From a virus, in UHGV virus genome UHGV-0120054: DNA of 10,308 nucleotides. The stretch is one strand, 5' to 3'. Shown in pieces: positions 1 through 8,456 of the stretch. The first letter of the stretch is position 1; every line of letters starts with the position of its first letter. The position numbers were made by a program, and so were the translations under genes. The notes under the pieces were generated by a model that had not been told where the DNA came from, made no database searches, and worked only from the letters and a program-made list of their open reading frames with translations.

Positions 1-1
1 A

Positions 2-121
2 AGCCCAGGACTTACAGCAGATGCTGAACTCAATTATTACCGTCTACGAAGTGGAATCGACAGGATAACCGCGCAGGTTAACTACCTGCAGGAGTACATC
101 AGGACGCAATGCCTGAAATAA
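2..121 (+). CDS. 3' end of an upstream gene (partial, function unknown)
   Basis: Frame 2 is open from the window edge to TAA at 119-121 (…SPGLTADAELNYYRLRSGIDRITAQVNYLQEYIRTQCLK*). A second open frame overlaps it and ends at 66-68. Two intrinsic terminators follow. No family recognised. Confidence 0.3.
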   Translation, partial: SPGLTADAELNYYRLRSGIDRITAQVNYLQEYIRTQCLK

Positions 122-152
122 TTTTTTTGCAAATCACAAAGTCCATTTAATG

Positions 153-176
153 AGCCTCGCGATGCGGGGCTTTTTG
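153..176 (+). terminator. Rho-independent terminator (first of a tandem pair)
   Basis: GC-rich hairpin GCCTCGC-GATG-CGGGGC at 154-170, 6-7 bp stem with one G-U pair, followed directly by TTTTT at 171-175. Confidence 0.6.
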
Positions 177-182
177 CAATAA

Positions 183-207
183 ATGCGTACCGCAACGCAT
201 GTTTTTT
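183..207 (+). terminator. Rho-independent terminator (second of a tandem pair)
   Basis: Perfect 6-bp stem ATGCGT/ACGCAT at 183-188 and 195-200 with a 6-nt loop, followed by GTTTTTT at 201-207. Confidence 0.6.
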
Positions 208-322
208 ACACCGAACCTGCCCCTTTGGAATGGGCCTTTGAGGATACCAGTTAGTGCTGGCGAGCCTCGGTGGGCTGGTTTCCTGTGCGGCAAAGGTTCA
301 TTTCAAAGAGTAGGTACACGCT

Positions 323-820
323 ATGAAATCATTAACCCTCTTCAATCAACCAATTCGTATCGGTGAAGATGGCATGATCTGCCTCACTGATATGTGGAAA
401 GCCAGTGGTAAAAGTGAATCTGAATCGCCTTACCACTACCTGCGAAACAAGCAGACCAAAGAGTTCTTAGCCGAGCTGGAGAAAAACCACGAATCTGTGG
501 TTTTTACTGAGCGCGGTGTACACGGTGGAACATATGGCGGGAAGTTTGTTGCTTACGATTATGCGGCTTGGTTAAACCCCGGGTTCAAGTACGCGGCCTA
601 TAAAGTCCTCGATGACTACTTCACCGGAGAACTTCAGCATCGCAACAGCTTAAGTGCGCAGCTCAACATGAAATGTCATGAGTTTGACCAGAAGAAAGAC
701 ATGGCGAGCTTCTGCGGACAAGGGCTGGCAGCATGGCGCTATACGAAGCCAGTGTTGGTCGCTGAGATTAACTCCCTGGCTAACCAGTTGCAGATTACGA
801 TCCCCGGGCTTCCGGGATGA
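323..820 (+). CDS. KilA-N domain protein (possible antirepressor or DNA-binding regulator)
   Basis: 165-aa ORF. The N-terminal ~100 aa carry the KilA-N signature (LFNQPIRI…DGMICLTDMWKASGK…GTYGGKFVAYDYAAWLNPGFKYAAYKVLDDYF). Weak SD (AGGT) 7 nt upstream of the ATG. Confidence 0.8.
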   Translation: MKSLTLFNQPIRIGEDGMICLTDMWKASGKSESESPYHYLRNKQTKEFLAELEKNHESVVFTERGVHGGTYGGKFVAYDYAAWLNPGFKYAAYKVLDDYFTGELQHRNSLSAQLNMKCHEFDQKKDMASFCGQGLAAWRYTKPVLVAEINSLANQLQITIPGLPG

Positions 821-1074
821 GTGATCGTGTCATTGAATGCGCCTCCAGAGCGGGGCGTGACTTCTCAGAGTTCATGAAAGGTGAGAAGGGCATGATGGAA
901 GCATTGGCCTCGGTGGATGAGTTTGGCGAGCAGCTGCGCCTCAACGGCTGTGTCAATCATCACTTTGTTAGCTACATGATGCGGAACTCGATCATGCAGG
1001 CATTCATGGACATGGCAAAAGCCGAGAGGAAAGAAGAGCGCCGGCGTAAGCGAGCGGAAGCAAAAGCGAAGTAG
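817..1074 (+). CDS. hypothetical small protein with a strongly basic C-terminal tail, co-translated with the KilA-N gene
   Basis: 85-aa ORF whose ATG (817) overlaps the KilA-N stop (ATGA at 817-820). C-terminus is AKAERKEERRRKRAEAKAK. No family recognised. Confidence 0.5.
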   Translation: MSDRVIECASRAGRDFSEFMKGEKGMMEALASVDEFGEQLRLNGCVNHHFVSYMMRNSIMQAFMDMAKAERKEERRRKRAEAKAK

Positions 1075-1436
1075 CCATTACAAAGCCCATCTACGGGTGG
1101 GCTTGATAATGAAACCGGAGTTAATTTCTGGTCACTAATTAACGGCAGTACAGCGAAACAACCCAAGCCAGAAAGTGGGGAAATAACACTGGCAGCCACT
1201 GAAAGATGAACCTCCTGCCTGATGGCAAAAAAGATTCTTTGTGGTGGCGGACTGATGGAAAGACATCGGTTATTGCAGAGACCATTCAATGAGTGGTCTC
1301 GACAATGGCTTATACCCTACACGGGATAACTTAACTGATATCCCCACAAGCGGATAAAGAGATTCTCAATGTCAGGAATCTACTTTTAGTCCTAGTAATG
1401 ATGAACTAGATATCAGTTGAGTCGCTTGGGTGGTGA

Positions 1437-1673
1437 TTACGATTCTGCTTCAAACTCAGAAATTAGTTGATGAACACGTTCAGTATATGATGGGTTAGAA
1501 CCTAGAAACTCTTCCACTGTCTGAATGGTTTCATCACCCTCCCATTCAAAATGGCTCACAGGCGACGAATGACCAGCCCTGACTTGGTAGGAGCCATTGT
1601 CCAATTTGTCCAGGAATATATAAGTTTCATTATCATGAACTGTATTTCGGTAAAAAATTTGCTTTGAGTTCAT
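1437..1673 (-). CDS. hypothetical small acidic protein (moron, antisense to the late operon)
   Basis: 78-aa ORF on the minus strand with a good SD on that strand (AGAGGA, 8 nt before the ATG). Sits in a low-GC patch (about 25-45% GC in 60-bp blocks, against roughly 55% in the structural genes). Protein is net acidic. No family recognised. Confidence 0.55.
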   Translation of the reverse strand: MNSKQIFYRNTVHDNETYIFLDKLDNGSYQVRAGHSSPVSHFEWEGDETIQTVEEFLGSNPSYTERVHQLISEFEAES

Positions 1674-1697
1674 TAAAGAAATCCTCTAGAGAAAACT

Positions 1698-2249
1698 ATG
1701 GCACTCACCGACAAGCAAGAAATGTTCTGTCGCGAGTACCTCATCGATTTAAACGCCACGCAAGCGGCTATTCGGGCGGGGTACAGCGCAAAGACAGCTA
1801 ACCGTACCGCATCCGAAAACCTGTCAAAACCTGACATCAAGTTAAGAATCGCCGAACTGAAAGCGCAACGCAATGATCTTATTGGTATTAATGCAGAATA
1901 TGTACTTAATCGCCTTATTGAAATCGACCAGATGGATGTGCTCGACATTCTCCTGCAAAACGGTGAGCTAAAGCCCATTAAAGACTGGCCTAAGGTATGG
2001 CGCACAACGCTATCAGGAATGGATGTCGTGGAGATGGTATCCGCAGATAGCGCCGCACTTCTGAAGAAAATCAAATGGCCTGATAAGGTTAAAAACCTTG
2101 AGTTGCTTGGGCGTCATGTTTCTGTTCAGGCGTTTAAAGACAATGTCAAAAATGAAGTGACTGGTGCTGACGGAGGACCAGTCAGAACAGAAATTACCAA
2201 CTTAACGCCGGAGCAGGCTGCAGAGGCGTATAGAAAAATGATGGGCTAA
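1698..2249 (+). CDS. phage terminase small subunit (Terminase_2-like)
   Basis: 183-aa ORF. N-terminus [34 protein letters not shown]… matches the conserved HTH-like signature of this terminase small-subunit family. Lies immediately upstream of the large subunit. Confidence 0.8.
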
Positions 2250-2251
2250 GT

Positions 2252-3874
2252 ATGCCGTTACCATTCCCCTTCGATTTTAAACATCCTGATTACCAGATGG
2301 TTTTTGAATGGCGGATGGAACGCCTACAACGCATTCGCCAGAATCCTGAAATATTGCCTGCACTAAAACAGTTTTACCGAACCAATCCGGCTCAGTTCAT
2401 CATCGACTGGGGCATGACAACGGACCCGCGTAATATTGATTATGGCCTGCCGGTGACCATTCCGTTTTTACTCTTCCCTAAGCAGGAGGAGTGGATCCAC
2501 TGGATTATGGAACGCTGGAGTAATCGGGAGAATGGTATTACCGAAAAATCCCGTGAAATGGGGCTCAGTTGGACCGCGATCGGGCTGGCCTGCTCGCTTT
2601 GTCTCTTCAACAAAGAAATGGTTATCGGTTTCGGCTCCCGTAAAGAGGAATACGTCGACAGCACCGGTGACCCGAAGGCGCTGTTCTGGAAGGCGCGCAA
2701 GTTCGTGGAAACACTACCTGTAGAGTTTCGCGGTTCGTGGAGCGAGAAGAAGCACGCGCCATATATGCGTGTTGAGTTTCCTGAAACTGGTGCCGTTATC
2801 AAAGGCGAGGCTGGCGATAATATTGGTCGTGGTGACCGTACCACGCTTTATCTGGTTGATGAGGCTGCATTCCTTCAGCGTCCTCTGCTGATTGATGCGG
2901 CGTTGTCACAAACGACGCGTTGCCGTATCGACCTGAGTTCGGTTAACGGCATGGCGAACCCGTTCGCGCAGAAGCGTCACGGCGGGAAGATACCGGTATT
3001 CACATTCCACTGGCGGGATGATCCTCGCAAGGATGAAGAGTGGTATCGCAGGGAATGCGAGAAAATCGATAATCCGGTGGTGGTGGCACAGGAACTTGAT
3101 CTGAACTACAGCGCATCAGCGGAAGGCGTCCTGATTCCATCCGAATGGGTACAGGCTGCCGTTGATGCGCATATCAAACTGGGTATCCAGCCAACAGGCA
3201 AACGACTTGGCGCGATGGATGTCGCCGACGAAGGCAGGGACAAAAATGCCTTTTCCACCCGTCATGGCTTCCTCCTGGAGAATGTGCGGGAATGGTCCGG
3301 GGTGGGCAGCGACATTTATCAGTCCGTCGAGAAGGTCTTCGGCTTTTGCGAACAGGACAATCTTGATGAGTTTCGCTTTGACGAGGACGGGCTGGGCGCT
3401 GGCGTTCGCGGCGATGCACGCGCTATCAACGAACTGCGTAACGCTGCGCGCCGACCGTCAATACTCGCTACACCGTTTCGAGGTAGTGGCGCGGTATTTG
3501 ATCCGGATGATGAAGCTGTTCGCGGGGACAACGGGCAAGCCGCACGTCTGAACAAGGACTTCTTCGCTAACGCCAAAGCCCAGAGCTGGTGGCGGTTACG
3601 TAAACTTTTTCAGAATACCTGGCGCGCCGTGGTTGAAGGTATGGCTTACAACCCAGACGAAATCATCTCAATCAGCAGTAGCATGGCACTCAAAGATAAA
3701 CTCATCATCGAGCTTTCGCAGCCGACCTATTCCATTAATGGTGTGGGAAAAATCGTTATTGATAAACAGCCTGATGGAACCCGATCACCAAACCTTGCTG
3801 ACTCGGTGATGATCAACTATGCCCCAATGAATTCAGCCCTGAACATCTGGGAGCTGCTAGGGAGACAGGCCTGA
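2252..3874 (+). CDS. phage terminase large subunit (ATPase plus nuclease)
   Basis: 540-aa ORF. Deviant P-loop KSREMGLS (lambda gpA-like K-S-x-R-x-G-x-S, recalled from memory). Walker [12 protein letters not shown]-terminal RNase-H-like nuclease motifs [25 protein letters not shown] and [10 protein letters not shown]. Confidence 0.85.
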
Positions 3875-4392
3875 TGGCACGAAACAAGCAATCCTCTCAG
3901 CGAACGGCACAGGCCACCGCTGACGGCTACGAGAACTTCGTCGCCCGCGTTGGGATGAGCTCATTGCAGGAGCGCCGCTTACGGCTGCCGATGCGCCGGA
4001 TACTGGACATTATGCACCGCTCGGAACTCGGTAAGCCGCTGCCGGACGATTTCACGTTTGAGTTTAACCCGCTATGGCAAATGTCTGACGTTGACCGCTC
4101 AACGGTGGCCGTAAACACCACCAACGCGATCAGCACCGCGCTGGGCGACGGATTGATGACGCGTAAGGCGGCGATGACCGACCTGCGAGAAAACTCTGAC
4201 GTCACCGGCATCGGGGCATCCATTACCGACGAGGACGTAGAGAATGCCGAAGACGAAGCGCCGCCAGGCATCGGCGAACTTGGCGACAAACCGCCAGAGT
4301 CGCCAGGCGGAGATCCGATATCGAACGAGCCTACGGCAGATAGCGCGGGCGGTCGGGGATATCGTAAATGGGCGCTACGATGGTTCAAATGA
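3874..4392 (+). CDS. hypothetical protein in the position expected for the portal gene; possibly a portal remnant
   Basis: 172-aa ORF. ATG overlaps the terminase stop (TGATG at 3872-3876). Acidic C-terminal region (TDEDVENAEDEAPPG). Far too short for a portal (typically over 400 aa). The last 149 nt overlap the next gene in another frame, where that gene's frame has the higher third-position GC. Confidence 0.4.
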   Translation: MARNKQSSQRTAQATADGYENFVARVGMSSLQERRLRLPMRRILDIMHRSELGKPLPDDFTFEFNPLWQMSDVDRSTVAVNTTNAISTALGDGLMTRKAAMTDLRENSDVTGIGASITDEDVENAEDEAPPGIGELGDKPPESPGGDPISNEPTADSAGGRGYRKWALRWFK

Positions 4393-5017
4393 TAGCGTTA
4401 CCGAAATAATGGATGCGCTGGAGCGCTACAGCGAAATCATCACCCCCTGGGCGACGAAGGTTGCTGAGAACTTTACCGCCGACATTGCACGCCAGAATGA
4501 AAAGCAGTGGCGTCAGCACAGCCGGAACATCAGCGCAGAGCTGCGCAACATGGTCGACCGCGCCCCGGTAGGCCAGGTGATGAAATCCATCGTCGCCGAG
4601 CAAATTAAGTACATCAAGTCACTGCCTCTTGAGGCCGCCGATCGGGTGTATGACATTCAGAACAAGGCCATCGAGGCCGTTGTGTCTGGTGGCCGCGCTG
4701 AACCATTCGCGAAAGAGATAGCAGCGTCCGGTGACGTGTCACGCTCACGAGCGAACCTTATCGCCCGTACCGAGCTTGGACGTGCAACCGGCGCGCTGGA
4801 TCAGGCGCGTGCGCTGTCAATCGGCTCGAATGGTTATATCTGGCGTACAGCCGAAGATGGCGACGTCCGGCATTCTCATCGGGAGATGGAAGGTAAGTTT
4901 GTCGAATGGGGCAAACCTCCAACGCTTGATGGCATGACCGGTCACGCTGGCGAGCTCCCGAATTGTCGCTGTTATAAAGAAATCGTTTTTCCCAACCCTC
5001 ATTCTTATCTCGCCTGA
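4244..5017 (+). CDS. phage head morphogenesis protein, Mu F / SPP1 gp7 family
   Basis: 257-aa ORF. Hallmark C-terminal motifs LIARTELGRA … WRTAEDGDVRHSHREMEG … PNCRCY. SD GAGGA at 4231-4235, 8 nt before the ATG. The frame opens only one codon upstream (TAG 4238-4240). Alternative downstream start at 4409. Confidence 0.8.
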   Translation: MPKTKRRQASANLATNRQSRQAEIRYRTSLRQIARAVGDIVNGRYDGSNDSVTEIMDALERYSEIITPWATKVAENFTADIARQNEKQWRQHSRNISAELRNMVDRAPVGQVMKSIVAEQIKYIKSLPLEAADRVYDIQNKAIEAVVSGGRAEPFAKEIAASGDVSRSRANLIARTELGRATGALDQARALSIGSNGYIWRTAEDGDVRHSHREMEGKFVEWGKPPTLDGMTGHAGELPNCRCYKEIVFPNPHSYLA

Positions 5018-5031
5018 ATCGCAGGTAAACC

Positions 5032-6252
5032 ATGAAATATTTTTTCAATACCCGGCTGGGGGAAACCCGCTATCAGCTGGCTGACGGCTCGCTGCTGTGC
5101 AAAGACGTGCCGATAGGTCGAACGGGTAAGCAGCTCTACGGCGCTGCCGATCTGCCAAACCTCAAACCCGACAAGCTCGGTGAGATAGTCGTAACGCGTT
5201 CTCCTGAGCAGGTATTCCATCCGGCCACGCTCGCCTCATTCGAAGGGATGAGCATCACGATCCTGCATCCTGAAGATGAAAACGGGAATGTGCGGCTGGT
5301 AAATCCCGAGAACTGGAAAGAGCTTGCTGTCGGGCATCTTCAGAATGTGCGGCGCGGGACGGGTGACCAGTCTGATTTGATGCTGGCTGACCTTATCGTC
5401 AAAGACGAAAACGCCATTCAGCTTATCGAAGATGGCCTGCGTGAAGTGTCGTGCGGCTATGACGCGGAGTACGAGCAGACCGAGCCAGGTAAAGCCGAGC
5501 AGGTCGATATTACCGGAAACCATGTGGCTCTTGTCCCCAAAGGCAGAGCCGGAAATCGTTGTGCAATTGGAGACAGAGACACAATGGCAAATCAAAAGAA
5601 AAACTGGTGGAACCGCATGCGTGCAGCCATCAAGACAGGAGATGCCGACACCATGAACGAACTGGTGGAGTCGGCTCCCGCATCGGTTACAGGAGATGAG
5701 GGGGATTTGCCGCAGGGCGTTAATCTCAACATCAACCTGTCCCCGCAGCAACCACTACCGGACAAAGCACCAGAGATGGGTGGAGGTCCAACCGGCGACA
5801 GTGATGATGACCTCAAAACATTACTGAAAGCCCTGCTGGCTAAGCTGGAAGGAAATGCGACGGGCGATAACGACAATAATCCTGACGATAATCCGACCGG
5901 TGACGGCGAGGACTATGAAGAGGAAACCACGATTACTGGTGACTCAGCCTGGCGTGCCGAAGTTATCGTTCCGGGTATCGATCTGAGCCGTAAGATGAAA
6001 CCGACCGCGTTCAAACGCGAGGTTCTGGCTTCTGCTGACAAAACGCTGGTTCGCCAGATAGTCGGTGATGCGGATATCCGCAAATTACCGAAACAATCGG
6101 TCAACATGGCGTTTAATGCCGTGTCAGAGATTGCCAAAGGGCGAAACACCCGTACCACCATGGGCGATGCACAACGCCAAAATATGGGCATGACCAGCAT
6201 CGCTTCCCTGAACAAACAAAACGCCGAATTCTGGTCTAACCGCAAAGGATAA
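5032..6252 (+). CDS. putative head scaffold or maturation protein (DUF2213-like)
   Basis: 406-aa ORF directly after the MuF gene. Conserved N-terminal half followed by a long acidic low-complexity segment (GDSDDDLK…GDNDNNPDDNPTGDGEDYEEE). Family assignment is from memory of MuF/DUF2213/capsid head modules. Confidence 0.55.
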   Translation: MKYFFNTRLGETRYQLADGSLLCKDVPIGRTGKQLYGAADLPNLKPDKLGEIVVTRSPEQVFHPATLASFEGMSITILHPEDENGNVRLVNPENWKELAVGHLQNVRRGTGDQSDLMLADLIVKDENAIQLIEDGLREVSCGYDAEYEQTEPGKAEQVDITGNHVALVPKGRAGNRCAIGDRDTMANQKKNWWNRMRAAIKTGDADTMNELVESAPASVTGDEGDLPQGVNLNINLSPQQPLPDKAPEMGGGPTGDSDDDLKTLLKALLAKLEGNATGDNDNNPDDNPTGDGEDYEEETTITGDSAWRAEVIVPGIDLSRKMKPTAFKREVLASADKTLVRQIVGDADIRKLPKQSVNMAFNAVSEIAKGRNTRTTMGDAQRQNMGMTSIASLNKQNAEFWSNRKG

Positions 6253-6256
6253 TCCA

Positions 6257-6760
6257 ATGACTGCATATCTGTACCGGATGCCTGTTGGCATTGCCGGGGC
6301 TGTCTCTCGCCCGCAGGACTTAACCGTCGAACCGGTGGTCCTTAAATCCGATAACGCCTTCGCTGCCTATGGGCTGGCTGGTAAATACGATGCTGACGGT
6401 TTTTTCGTACCGCTGGCAGATGGTGATACCGCAGACAAGGTGAAGGGGATCTACGTGCGCCCTTATCCGACCACGTCGCAGCCGGACATGGTTCGCCAGG
6501 TGGGGAGTGGCAAGAACTTCCCGGGAGACGCCATGAAGCGTGGCTACGTGACCGTTAATCTCGGTTCTGATTTTGATGCCAGCACCATCAAAAAAGGCGA
6601 CCCGGTATACGTTGTCGTCTCCGCTGATGAATCCATCAAAGTGCCGCTGGGTGGATTCATGTCCACGTCAGTCAGTGGCAAAAATGTGGTGCTGACCAAC
6701 GCTGAATTCACAGGTGCCGGTGATGCTAACGGCAATGCAGAAATTTCCTGGAAGATTTAA
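6257..6760 (+). CDS. putative small head structural or decoration protein
   Basis: 167-aa ORF with SD AGGA, lying between the scaffold-like gene and the capsid gene. Gly/Val-rich, beta-rich-looking sequence. Confidence 0.45.
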   Translation: MTAYLYRMPVGIAGAVSRPQDLTVEPVVLKSDNAFAAYGLAGKYDADGFFVPLADGDTADKVKGIYVRPYPTTSQPDMVRQVGSGKNFPGDAMKRGYVTVNLGSDFDASTIKKGDPVYVVVSADESIKVPLGGFMSTSVSGKNVVLTNAEFTGAGDANGNAEISWKI

Positions 6761-6771
6761 GGAACAGACGA

Positions 6772-7584
6772 ATGATTACTTTTGATCAGGCAACCGTTGA
6801 CAGCTCTGGTGCCTTTCTCATCGGGGAGCTGGAGCGACTCGACCAGACGCTGAACCTGCCACTGGTGGGGTACACCTGGACCCGCGATATTCAGTTGCGT
6901 GAAGATGTCTCCATCGCAGATGACATTTCCAGCTGGACGAATACCAGCTTCGCCGCTGCGGGTACTGGCGCAAATCCGAATGGCAAAAACTGGGTAGGCA
7001 AAGACTCAACCGCTATTGCTGGCGTGAACGTGGATATCGGCAAATCCGGTAACCCGCTGAACCTGTGGGGGATGGAGCTTGGCTGGACGGTCATAGAATT
7101 GCAGGCTGCTCAGCAGGTCGGACGCCCGATTGATACGCAGAAGTATGACGGGATGCAACTGAAATGGCAGATGGATAACGATGAACAGGTGTATGTTGGC
7201 GATTCCGCATTAAACCTGAAAGGCCTTGTTACCCTGAACGGTGTTCCTGTCAACAACGCTGCCAAAACGTGGGCAACCTCAACACCGGACGAAATCCGCG
7301 CAAGCATTAACCAGGTGCTGTCTGATGCGTGGGCCGCTTCCGGTTACTCTGTGGTTCCGCGTGATTTGCTGATCCCACCTGAGCAGTTTGCTCTGTTGTC
7401 CAGCATCATCGTTTCATCTGCGGGTAACCAGTCCCTGTTGACGTACCTTCAGACCAACACCATCAGCTATCACCAGAACGGTGTTCCGCTGAATATCCGC
7501 GCGGTTAAATGGCTGAAAGGCCGTGGTGTGGGGAATAAGGATCGCATGGTTGCGTACACCAACGATAAAAAATACGTCCGCTAA
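6772..7584 (+). CDS. major capsid protein (DUF2184-like)
   Basis: 270-aa ORF with a strong SD (AAGGAA). Position after the scaffold and small head protein genes is that of a major capsid gene. Sequence is consistent with capsid proteins of this head-module type, recalled from memory. Confidence 0.6.
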   Translation: MITFDQATVDSSGAFLIGELERLDQTLNLPLVGYTWTRDIQLREDVSIADDISSWTNTSFAAAGTGANPNGKNWVGKDSTAIAGVNVDIGKSGNPLNLWGMELGWTVIELQAAQQVGRPIDTQKYDGMQLKWQMDNDEQVYVGDSALNLKGLVTLNGVPVNNAAKTWATSTPDEIRASINQVLSDAWAASGYSVVPRDLLIPPEQFALLSSIIVSSAGNQSLLTYLQTNTISYHQNGVPLNIRAVKWLKGRGVGNKDRMVAYTNDKKYVR

Positions 7585-8456
7585 CCGGTACGGCAGGCAC
7601 GACTATCTCGAATGGTTCTGCACGGGATAAAAACGGCATTATCTGGAATTTTCCAGCGAGTGTAGCGATCGGCGTTGATGGTACTGTGCTGGTGACGGCC
7701 ACATGTGCGAATAGCGGTTCGGTTGCGGCGCTGGCCGGGACTATTACCACTATCAACACCCCGACCCGAGGTTGGGTGTCGGTAACCAATCCTGCTGCAG
7801 CCACTGTGGGCACTCCGGCAGAAACTGATGCGGAGTTACGTATCCGCCAGTCGCAAAGTGTTGCGTTGCCATCAATAACCCCATTTGAAGCACTGGATGG
7901 TGCTGTTTCTAATGTTACCGGTGTAACCCGCCACAAACTCTATGAAAACGATACTGGTTCGGAGGACGGTAACGGGTTACCGCCACACTCTGTTGCTGTA
8001 ATTGTGGATGGCGGTGATGTGACGGATATTGCTCAGGCTATCAGAGGAAATAAAGGCCAGGGGACAGCCACTCACGGTACAACATCCGTTACGGTTCCGG
8101 ATAAATACGGCAATCCCCATGTAATCAAATTCTCGCGTTCCAGTGATGTGCCTGTTTATGCCCGGATTAAATTAAAAGTTTTTACGGGTTATACCTCACA
8201 GATAGGGCAGCAGATCCAGCAGGCTATTTCCGACTATATCAATAGTCTGACGATTGGTGATTCGGTCCTTTTAAGTCGCATTTACTCACCGGCGAATCTT
8301 GGCGTGGTGAGTGGCGGGAATGCACGCTATTACGATATTCAGGAACTGACGATTGGGAAATCCCCGGGGGCTTTGTCGTCATCAAACATTGATATCAGAT
8401 ACAACGAATCTGCGTCCTGTACCCCGGAAAATATCGTTATAACGGTGGAGTCATGA
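7569..8456 (+). pseudogene. baseplate J-like (gp47 / P2 gpJ family) gene, 5'-truncated
   Basis: Open frame of 296 codons starting inside the end of the capsid gene and containing no ATG at all. First possible start is GTG at 7686 with no convincing SD. Conserved J-family motif AETDAELRIRQSQS. No sheath, tube, tape-measure or other baseplate genes lie between capsid and this frame. Confidence 0.7.

Follow-up and report, generated by a model that had tools for sequence, protein, structure and literature searches.

A KilA-N gene overlapped by a small basic-tailed partner gene in a terminator-flanked phage cassette that is probably an allele of the P22 rha locus

The viral genome UHGV-0120054 was analysed as one stretch of 10,308 nucleotides (nt), here called the window, in which two plus-strand open reading frames (ORFs) lie between the last lysis gene and the packaging genes. 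The first (gene 1, 323–820, 165 amino acids, aa) encodes a KilA-N protein and the second (gene 2, 817–1074, 85 aa) a small protein with a basic tail. The ATG of gene 2 overlaps the TGA of gene 1 in the sequence ATGA at 817–820, as had been observed in an earlier note made on this DNA from the sequence alone. Such 4-nt overlaps are frequent within operons and are, on their own, no proof of a functional unit. The same note placed the pair in an accessory position between terminators and packaging genes, which agrees with the following arrangement of features.

1–121, plus strand: 3′ end of the final lysis gene, which encodes an Rz-like spanin and bounds the locus upstream (open frame 2–121, stop 119–121, ending in AQVNYLQEYIRTQCLK)
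152–178, plus strand: intrinsic terminator 1, a 9-bp GC-rich stem followed by UUUUU (−14.6 kcal/mol, z-score (z) −2.75)
183–207, plus strand: intrinsic terminator 2, a 6-bp stem followed by U6 (−6.9 kcal/mol, z −1.9)
218–316, plus strand: conserved leader hairpin, in which the anti-Shine-Dalgarno sequence CCUUUGG (~222–228) pairs with the Shine-Dalgarno region of the KilA-N gene (~303–316); minimum free energy −42.9 kcal/mol
323–820, plus strand: gene 1, corresponding to HK620 hkbK, 165 aa, with KilA-N at residues 9–101 and ORF11CD3 at residues 109–161; PHROG 129/10441
817–1074, plus strand: gene 2, corresponding to HK620 hkbL, 85 aa, PHROG 875; a predicted three-helix bundle with an Arg/Lys-rich C-terminal helix
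1076–1112, plus strand: very stable hairpin directly after the small-gene stop, the 3′ boundary of the cassette (−20.2 kcal/mol, z −6.5)
1132–1285, plus strand: conserved non-coding region, a homologue of P22G that flanks the cassette, has its P22 counterpart immediately behind rha and is conserved to ~1344 in Shiga toxin (Stx) phages and HK620
1698–2249: small terminase gene (terS), with a Terminase_2 match, downstream of the pair

The regions of PhiR49_1 and HK620 that are collinear with positions 1–121 bear an Rz annotation. Profile searches of both proteins were performed, and for gene 1 they bear out the KilA-N identity first proposed for it, with 57.6 bits against the Pfam family PF04383 (cut-off 23.8); its C-terminal part matches ORF11CD3 (PF10549) with 50.5 bits (cut-off 25). 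An AlphaFold2 model (predicted local distance difference test, pLDDT, 84.5) comprises an N-terminal strand/helix domain and a long C-terminal helical hairpin (H86–130 and H132–156), and fold comparison reveals a likeness of the KilA-N domain to the APSES DNA-binding domain of Mbp1. As modelled, the gene 1 product is a regulator of the Bro network, whose Pfam domains are listed in PMC10111431, with an APSES-like DNA-binding head on an ORF11CD3 helical-hairpin tail. A Pfam search at E up to 1 found no ANT, P22_AR_N or P22_AR_C domain in either protein. In a PADLOC scan, the sole match of gene 1 was a weak one to the candidate family PDC-S22 (E 1e-8 over ~30 residues); BstA and the established defence families gave none. 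Copies of gene 1 that are 96–100% identical occur in HK620, ECP1, PhiR49_1 and Stx phages. In several loci the KilA-N gene appears in 177-, 188- or 246-aa versions, which are artefacts of an upstream-extended start.

Gene 2 matches phrog_875 over its whole length (E 3e-54, residues 1–85 on profile positions 1–85 of 85), a family in the category of unknown function, and profile searches of Pfam, NCBIfam and the PDB found no relatives. A PADLOC match to QatB was at chance level. The protein has two contrasting parts, with residues 1–66 acidic (isoelectric point, pI, 5.2) and the C-terminus AKAERKEERRRKRAEAKAK containing ten Lys/Arg and four Glu in 19 residues (pI 11). In an AlphaFold2 model (pLDDT 92.7) there are helices at 3–20, 26–42 and 48–84, and the Arg/Lys-rich helix protrudes. 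A fold search returned generic helical bundles only (McpS, designed proteins, MIT domains) and was uninformative. We also considered a zinc site formed by C8, C45, H48 and H49, and rejected it: C8 is Ser and H49 is Gly in the homologue from locus L101, and H49 is Tyr in that from L105 (surveyed loci are given L numbers).

Whether the 85-aa ORF is a gene was assessed using eleven homologues, each from a different locus. Compared with the copy in L086 there are 32 synonymous and 12 non-synonymous differences, giving a ratio of non-synonymous to synonymous rates (dN/dS) of 0.04; the corresponding values are 0.09 for HK022, 0.10 for Klebsiella phage RAH1 and 0.18 for Enterobacter L105. At larger distances, synonymous sites reach saturation while the protein remains conserved. 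Gene 2 is thus a genuine gene under purifying selection. The earlier note had named two findings that would speak against the pairing, namely a small ORF that is not conserved with its partner and the lack of a coding signal; instead, the ORF is conserved beside its partner and dN/dS is 0.04–0.18. The family is narrow, with 22 matches at E ≤0.001 when 1.84 billion representative proteins were searched with its profile, and homologues of named source belong to Enterobacterales. The basic character of the tail is conserved among homologues, which is consistent with the suggestion already made that the tail binds nucleic acid. In comparison with mEp235, the proportion of synonymous differences (pS) falls from 0.41 in the core to 0 in the tail, marking a recombination breakpoint inside gene 2.

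The cassette has distinct boundaries. Terminator 1 has a homologue, comprising hairpin and U-run, upstream of the pair in HK620, mEp235, Klebsiella RAH1 and Enterobacter L105, and the mEp235 record annotates it as a rho-independent terminator. In these four independent contexts the terminator lies 100–170 nt 5′ of the Bro-network gene, and no sigma-70 consensus promoter was found in between. A strict-consensus scan of the plus strand of window positions 1–1750 likewise gave no sigma-70 match, and repeats or operator-like motifs in that region were limited to short pairs at chance level. On the other side, a GC-rich hairpin follows the small-gene stop in the commonest downstream variants among 169 intact copies examined; in Klebsiella-type loci it has a U-run and forms a canonical terminator, and in the E. 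coli type the U-run is absent. The match of ECP1 to the window stops at 1111. With terminators on its 5′ side and a hairpin or terminator on its 3′ side, the module is therefore insulated on both sides, and we infer that most of its transcription would be late and terminator-resistant. At the position of terminator 2, relatives mostly have a GCGCA-N5-7-GCGCA inverted repeat without a U-run, followed by a −10-like TATCAA or TATTAA (L001 2856–2900, L091 1120–1160). This repeat, in which no covariation was seen, may act as an operator or weak promoter, or form a small hairpin; in the window it has turned into terminator 2. The P22G-like region at 1132–1285 includes a minus-strand terminator-like hairpin at 1232–1211.

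An alignment of upstream non-coding stretches revealed an element of ~135 nt (window 191–325), containing a hairpin of ~95 nt, that is conserved 5′ of KilA-N genes at loci from E. coli, Klebsiella, Enterobacter, Erwinia, Cronobacter, Salmonella and Trabulsiella. Folded singly, six divergent leaders share one architecture, a long imperfect hairpin (−39 to −53 kcal/mol, z −2.1 to −5.9) with the anti-Shine-Dalgarno CCUUU paired to the Shine-Dalgarno AAAGG at the base, then an asymmetric internal loop and an inner stem. In a MAFFT alignment of 22 sequences, 80% of cells are paired, 13 of 29 pairs have compensatory double changes and the covariation score is 0.268 (slid controls ≤0.161), the structure being derived from the same sequences. 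A model-fitted alignment of 34 distinct sequences, which shares this caveat and is biased towards the model, gave 86% of cells paired, compensatory double changes in 19 of 26 pairs and a score of 0.35 (slid controls 0.05–0.13); in the helix joining Shine-Dalgarno and anti-Shine-Dalgarno, it has 94.7% pairing and eight of nine pairs covarying. The earlier note had read a third terminator near 263–290. This does not stand, as that segment alone has z +0.4 against shuffled sequences and is the apex of the leader hairpin at 218–316.

A covariance model of the leader, R1, scores 78.3 bits on the window. Outside its training set, R1 matches before ST104 orf45 and SPN3UB gp71, and it also matches before a T5orf172 fusion gene in L099 (42.3 bits). 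The gene types found behind the leader are KilA-N, Rha, P22_AR_N and T5orf172-fusion; R1 was searched for and not found before the Phage_pRha partner genes of L101 and L104. In Rfam, the leader matched no family, with a weak sub-threshold hit to STnc470 at 116–246. We consider the leader a likely translational gate of Rha and KilA-N genes. In a Salmonella prophage, after the lysis genes, R1 matches precede three consecutive Bro-network genes (L192, 60–3534; P22_AR_N+ORF11CD3, KilA-N+ORF11CD3 and KilA-N), and one of the leaders overlaps a small-gene remnant. Because of this array, we suggest that the leader also serves as a recombination linker in cassette shuffling.

The leader connects the window to the rha locus of phage P22. 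P22 rha (orf201, 39575–40180) is located downstream of the lysis genes, after gene 15/Rz1, and its product comprises Phage_pRha (79.8 bits) and ORF11CD3; R1 matches the rha leader, likewise outside its training set, at 39509–39646 with 76.8 bits. Two small RNAs without known function have been described from P22 infection (PMC13397905, 2026): P22F, an 89-nt RNA that ends 6 nt before rha, and P22G, a 204-nt RNA downstream of ORF201. We see that the published P22F is 100% identical to window 229–309 over 81 nt, and that positions 49–204 of the published P22G are 95% identical to window 1132–1285. Because of these two identities and the common ORF11CD3 tail, the window locus is, as judged from sequence, an allele of P22 rha in which the DNA-binding head has been exchanged. 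The two loci share the late-operon slot after the lysis genes, a feature also of phi80 rha, together with the ORF11CD3 tail, the leader and the P22G-like region. P22 differs in having a Phage_pRha head where the window has KilA-N, and in having no phrog_875 gene. The order in the window is terminators, P22F-type leader, KilA-N+ORF11CD3 gene, an extra block of ~300 nt (817–1112, small gene and hairpin) and the P22G-type region. In P22 itself (L194, 39575–39646), rha is annotated with a GTG start that falls within the leader hairpin. An in-frame ATG at 39644 marks the end of the leader model, and the Pfam Rha domain starts at residue 48; translation probably begins 23 codons further on than the annotated GTG. 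Rha is described as the product of a late-operon gene that is detrimental to lytic growth without integration host factor, in the passage of PMC4936722 that cites Henthorn & Friedman 1995.

The pair is widespread. At 95–100% identity it is found in HK620 (hkbK/hkbL), ECP1, PhiR49_1, Stx1- and Stx2-converting phages, Shigella phage Ss-VASD and Salmonella phages S107/S135, in which the same two genes with the same ATGA overlap show no difference of substance from the window. A match was found in 521 of 5,426 complete E. coli genomes, and at least 80% of the cassette in 389 (~7%), with the genes annotated as 'KilA-N domain-containing protein' and 'hypothetical protein'. A literature search found no functional study of hkbK/hkbL. 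To our knowledge, no function has been established for Rha/KilA-N genes since 1985, when the Rha phenotype was described.

Two surveys were performed to compare the gene neighbourhoods, one of 87 matches to the E. coli-type small gene and one of 79 loci found with the Klebsiella-type small gene. In the first, the small gene is preceded by a KilA-N+ORF11CD3 gene with the ATGA overlap in 81 cases, by a truncated gene in two, and by a KilA-N+P63C gene ending 2 nt before the small-gene ATG in four. The second contains 67 intact pairs, 66 with KilA-N+P63C and one with KilA-N+ORF11CD3, as well as six solitary small genes (four intact, two broken) with a remnant of the P63C gene 3′ end in the 60 nt upstream, and six intact KilA-N+P63C genes whose small gene is cut to 10–16 codons. 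The two surveys together give 148 intact pairs in which tight juxtaposition is kept. The small gene is not specific to KilA-N partners: divergent copies stand behind a Phage_pRha gene, with an ATGA overlap, in L101–103, and behind a Phage_pRha+ANT gene, with a 2-nt gap, in Rouxiella (L104). There are thus four partner types (KilA-N+ORF11CD3, KilA-N+P63C, Phage_pRha and Phage_pRha+ANT), which have no segment in common beyond the similarity of one KilA-N domain to the other.

Tight juxtaposition across four unrelated upstream gene types exceeds chance. The junction is a 4- or 8-nt overlap or a 1–2-nt gap, each made of different sequence, so that it appears to have arisen independently at least four times. 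Because the Shine-Dalgarno-like sequence is weak at most junction types, translation of the small gene is probably dependent on coupling. This strengthens the case for the two-gene unit of the earlier note, as does the movement of the pair together between genomes. The two ORFs do not always co-occur, given the solitary genes, the stubs and the relatives of gene 1 that have no small gene. These relatives, KilA-N+ORF11CD3 proteins of ≤57% identity, are found in phiEt88, Cronobacter, Salmonella Kottbus (where just the first 14 small-gene codons remain), ST104 (orf45), SPN3UB (gp71) and D3 (orf11). The idea that the small protein is a partner of the ORF11CD3 domain was rejected, as the gene also stands behind P63C, ANT and other C-terminal domains, and P22 Rha, ST104 orf45 and D3 orf11 have ORF11CD3 without it. 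In phiEt88-type phages (L188 ~1193–1366, L189 3067–3183), the KilA-N+ORF11CD3 gene is overlapped, again by ATGA, by a different unannotated ORF of 57 aa (MTKTEYNRID...KRGVTK), helical and with a basic stretch at its end, which may be a small-partner analogue without detectable homology.

The pair occupies three genome slots, always in the orientation of the late genes. Slot 1 is between the Rz and terminase genes of E. coli lambdoid and P22-like phages; slot 2 is within the tail gene cluster of Klebsiella and Enterobacter prophages; and in slot 3 the pair closes an Arc(-)/Arc(+)/Ant-like operon right before the tailspike gene (the P22 immI layout; L101, L104). In all intact cases the small gene directly follows a Bro-network gene, and what lies downstream of it varies. 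In ST11-VIM1phi8.1 the pair adjoins a P22 immI-like region among Klebsiella phage tail genes, in which a sar-like antisense RNA (RF00262; L093 4170–4234, minus strand; 37.6 bits, E 3e-4, just under the gathering score of 43) lies between an Arc and a Bro-N gene. In relatives, other conflict genes are located in the same accessory region, namely a HicAB toxin-antitoxin pair flanked by the lysis genes and the T5orf172 fusion gene (L099 3018–3652) and a gene for an AcrIF11-like ADP-ribosyltransferase 5′ of the lysis cassette (L189 1–332).

Distant homologues of the small protein are fused to another domain. The N-termini of P0132 (164 aa) and P0135 (179 aa) are homologous to its first ~56 residues (hhalign probability 96–97%, E 4.5e-10 and 7e-9; whole-library E 3e-5 and 4e-4), and both have a T5orf172/MUG113 domain in place of the basic tail. 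The gene for P0132 adjoins a KilA-N+P63C gene and an Arc/Arc/Bro-N region, and that for P0135 stands alone between lysis and terminase genes, without a KilA-N gene. T5orf172 belongs to the GIY-YIG superfamily, and its usual N-terminal heads are the DNA-binding Bro-N, KilA-N and CapR (PMC8096241). Because the small-protein homologues are fused to T5orf172, and because of the heads that this domain usually has, we infer that the helical bundle may itself be a Bro-network module and that the basic helix would be a nucleic-acid-binding element exchangeable for T5orf172, an exchange that fits the nucleic-acid-binding tail proposed at the outset. Comparable are the T5orf172-type Bro-network proteins, such as the ICP1 homing-endonuclease-like proteins and relatives of PLE CapR; the helical domain of the fusions takes the place that a DNA-binding head usually has before T5orf172 (PMC8096241). 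The window protein differs from the fusions in having a 19-residue basic helix and in being encoded by a separate, coupled gene.

The pair itself was already known as HK620 hkbK/hkbL, as was the rha/Bro-network accessory locus of temperate enterobacterial phages, whose function is obscure. This analysis adds that the small gene is portable between Bro-network partners, that distant homologues are fused to T5orf172, and that the conserved leader, a likely translational gate, is common to P22 rha. Taken together, these data lead us to favour, with confidence slightly above an even chance, the view that the terminator-flanked cassette is a late-expressed, doubly gated pair of nucleic-acid-binding regulators of the Rha/antirepressor type. 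The cassette would occupy the 'rha slot' of a lambdoid late operon, between lysis and packaging genes. A first gate would be formed by the two terminators and the absence of a promoter match, allowing entry only by terminator-resistant (Q-modified) late transcription. A second would be the ~95-nt hairpin, which would occlude the gene 1 Shine-Dalgarno sequence and, via coupling, control gene 2 too. Gene 2 would be made by reinitiating ribosomes just off gene 1, so that both proteins would be made together once the hairpin is opened or processed. Both might then act on nucleic acid or on a repressor, in phage-phage or phage-host interplay late in infection, with the small protein as a generic nucleic-acid-binding accessory subunit for several kinds of Bro-network protein.

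Of the loci dissected by experiment, the closest analogue is isrK-orf45-anrP of Gifsy-1. There, AnrP is transcribed and remains untranslated since the leader hides its ribosome-binding site, and there is AUGA coupling to a small ORF; when AnrP is made, transcription of the antQ operon goes up and the prophage is induced (PMC4825925). A domain search identifies AnrP as an ORF6N Bro-network protein, so that the two loci resemble each other in combining a late-region Bro-network protein, a leader sequestering the ribosome-binding site, a stable small RNA derived from that leader (PMC4825925) and a small ORF coupled by AUGA. They differ in that the Gifsy-1 small ORF is upstream and not conserved in amino acid sequence whereas the window small gene is downstream and strongly conserved, and that anrP lies between Q and the lysis genes with its own promoter. 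Homology of the two leaders was considered and rejected, as R1 finds nothing in Gifsy-1.

A second comparison is with P22 immI (mnt, arc, ant, sar). In relatives of the window, the small gene and its partner end an arc/ant-like operon (L101, L104) or adjoin a sar-like region (L093), and in L101 and L104 the partner of the small gene or a neighbouring gene has ANT/P22_AR-type domains. By analogy, this context favours an antirepressor-like role, one of the roles raised in the earlier note. The theme shared by immI and the window pair is post-transcriptional control of a Bro-network gene. The window differs in having no Arc/Mnt genes, no ANT/P22_AR domains and no sar match, and in having a cis hairpin instead of an antisense RNA.

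Several points weigh against the favoured view. The literature contains no KilA-N+ORF11CD3 protein with demonstrated activity and no experiment on the pair, and what we found on ORF11CD3 or KilA-N consists just of genome descriptions, an HE-PICI Bro-network list, BstA and the PLE CapR paper. The promoter scan was for the strict sigma-70 consensus only, and the weak −10-like TATCAA/TATTAA is recurrent 5′ of the hairpin in relatives, so that some lysogenic expression is possible. The partnership is not obligatory, considering the four intact solitary small genes, the six partner genes followed by a stub and the gene 1 relatives that have no small gene. Further, the small proteins of RAH1 and ST11-VIM1phi8.1 differ by one residue while their partners are of ORF11CD3 and P63C type, respectively, with KilA-N heads ~24% identical; near-identical small proteins behind partners without a common segment argue against a specific interface with gene 1.

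These same observations suggest that the two genes might merely be independent neighbours. The small gene would then act alone, as a conserved flank of a recombination hot spot at which Bro-network genes are swapped. The small protein does not covary with its four unrelated partner architectures, a recombination breakpoint is seen inside the gene in mEp235, small genes and partners each exist without the other, and the fusion protein P0135 stands alone in the same slot. We nevertheless find this unlikely, since a Bro-network gene is upstream in every intact case in all three slots while the downstream neighbour varies, the tight junction formed at least four times independently from different sequences, two of the six solitary copies are broken and most junction types have no good Shine-Dalgarno sequence. 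Alternatively, the KilA-N protein could be host-lethal like P1 KilA, or phage-inhibitory like Rha, with the small coupled protein neutralising or tempering it. Coupling would guarantee co-synthesis, double gating suggests a dangerous product, and KilA and Rha relatives are reported to be harmful when expressed (P1 kilA annotation; the passage on rha in PMC4936722). However, intact KilA-N+P63C genes persist with a 10–16-codon stub of the small gene in six viral contigs, P22 rha, ST104 orf45, SPN3UB gp71 and phiEt88 share the leader and/or domains without a phrog_875 gene, a single small protein would need to neutralise four unrelated architectures, and an autoregulated promoter was not found in the strict sigma-70 scan of plus-strand positions 1–1750. 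The solitary and truncated cases also depart from the obligate co-occurrence of type II toxin-antitoxin pairs, and we regard such an antidote function as decidedly unlikely.

A role in prophage defence or superinfection exclusion, as for BstA, a KilA-N-like abortive-infection protein expressed from prophages, appears very unlikely to us. The KilA-N-like head of BstA is indeed used in phage-phage conflict (PMC8585504), gene 1 has its short PDC-S22 match, and the same slot in relatives holds HicAB and an AcrIF11-like gene. Yet defence needs expression in the lysogen, and the cassette has two terminators, no promoter match and a sequestered ribosome-binding site; its orientation is always that of the late operon and gene 1 matches neither BstA nor the established defence families. 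A further possibility, which we consider highly improbable, is that the small protein regulates by binding RNA; its arginine-rich helix would read the leader or another phage hairpin, with feedback on translation or termination like lambda N-boxB. The composition of the tail is like that of arginine-rich RNA-binding motifs, including those of lambda and P22 N, and a conserved structured RNA is present in the same cassette. Against this, the leader is found at many loci without the small gene (P22, ST104, phiEt88 and the three copies in L192), and the small gene is found behind Phage_pRha genes that have no R1 match (L101, L104). The motif is also C-terminal on a folded helical bundle, where that of lambda N-type antiterminators is N-terminal, and the nut/boxB targets of the latter lie upstream of terminators whereas the structured RNA of the window lies downstream of them.

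The preferred reading, a late regulator pair with two gates, can be extended. PHROG 875 might be a hitherto unrecognised Bro-network module, a portable nucleic-acid-binding subunit that translational coupling supplies in trans to unrelated Bro-network regulators (KilA-N, Rha, ANT). The terminators, the P22F-type leader hiding the ribosome-binding site and the two-subunit regulator would then make up a three-part switch that decides the late derepression of resident prophages or satellites; we think this unlikely. In the boldest version, the arginine-rich helix would bind the leader or another phage RNA hairpin and so feed back on its own expression. A great many temperate enterobacterial phages, Shiga-toxin phages among them, have Rha and KilA-N genes in their late operons, and a common uncharacterised pair is now tied to the rha locus. 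If the module does derepress other prophages or satellites, this would have a bearing on Stx-phage induction and phage-phage competition; as things stand, it is an ordinary accessory module whose function is inferred.

Finally, the rest of the window suggests a defective prophage. The portal ORF (3874–4392) has just 172 aa and matches positions 299–355 only of the Phage_portal_3 profile, and the best E. coli relative has ~960 extra bases across window 1–7587. The major capsid gene (6772–7584) is followed almost immediately by a Baseplate_J-like ORF truncated at its N-terminus (7584–7686 region); because these two nearly abut, head-completion and tail genes appear to be missing. Between the cassette and terS, a minus-strand ORF of 78 aa (1437–1673), with no Pfam family and a chance-level PHROG match, may be an independent moron. 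The 540-aa ORF at 2252–3874, in the position of the large terminase, has no Pfam match at E ≤0.001, and its RefSeq relatives are annotated 'TerL protein'.

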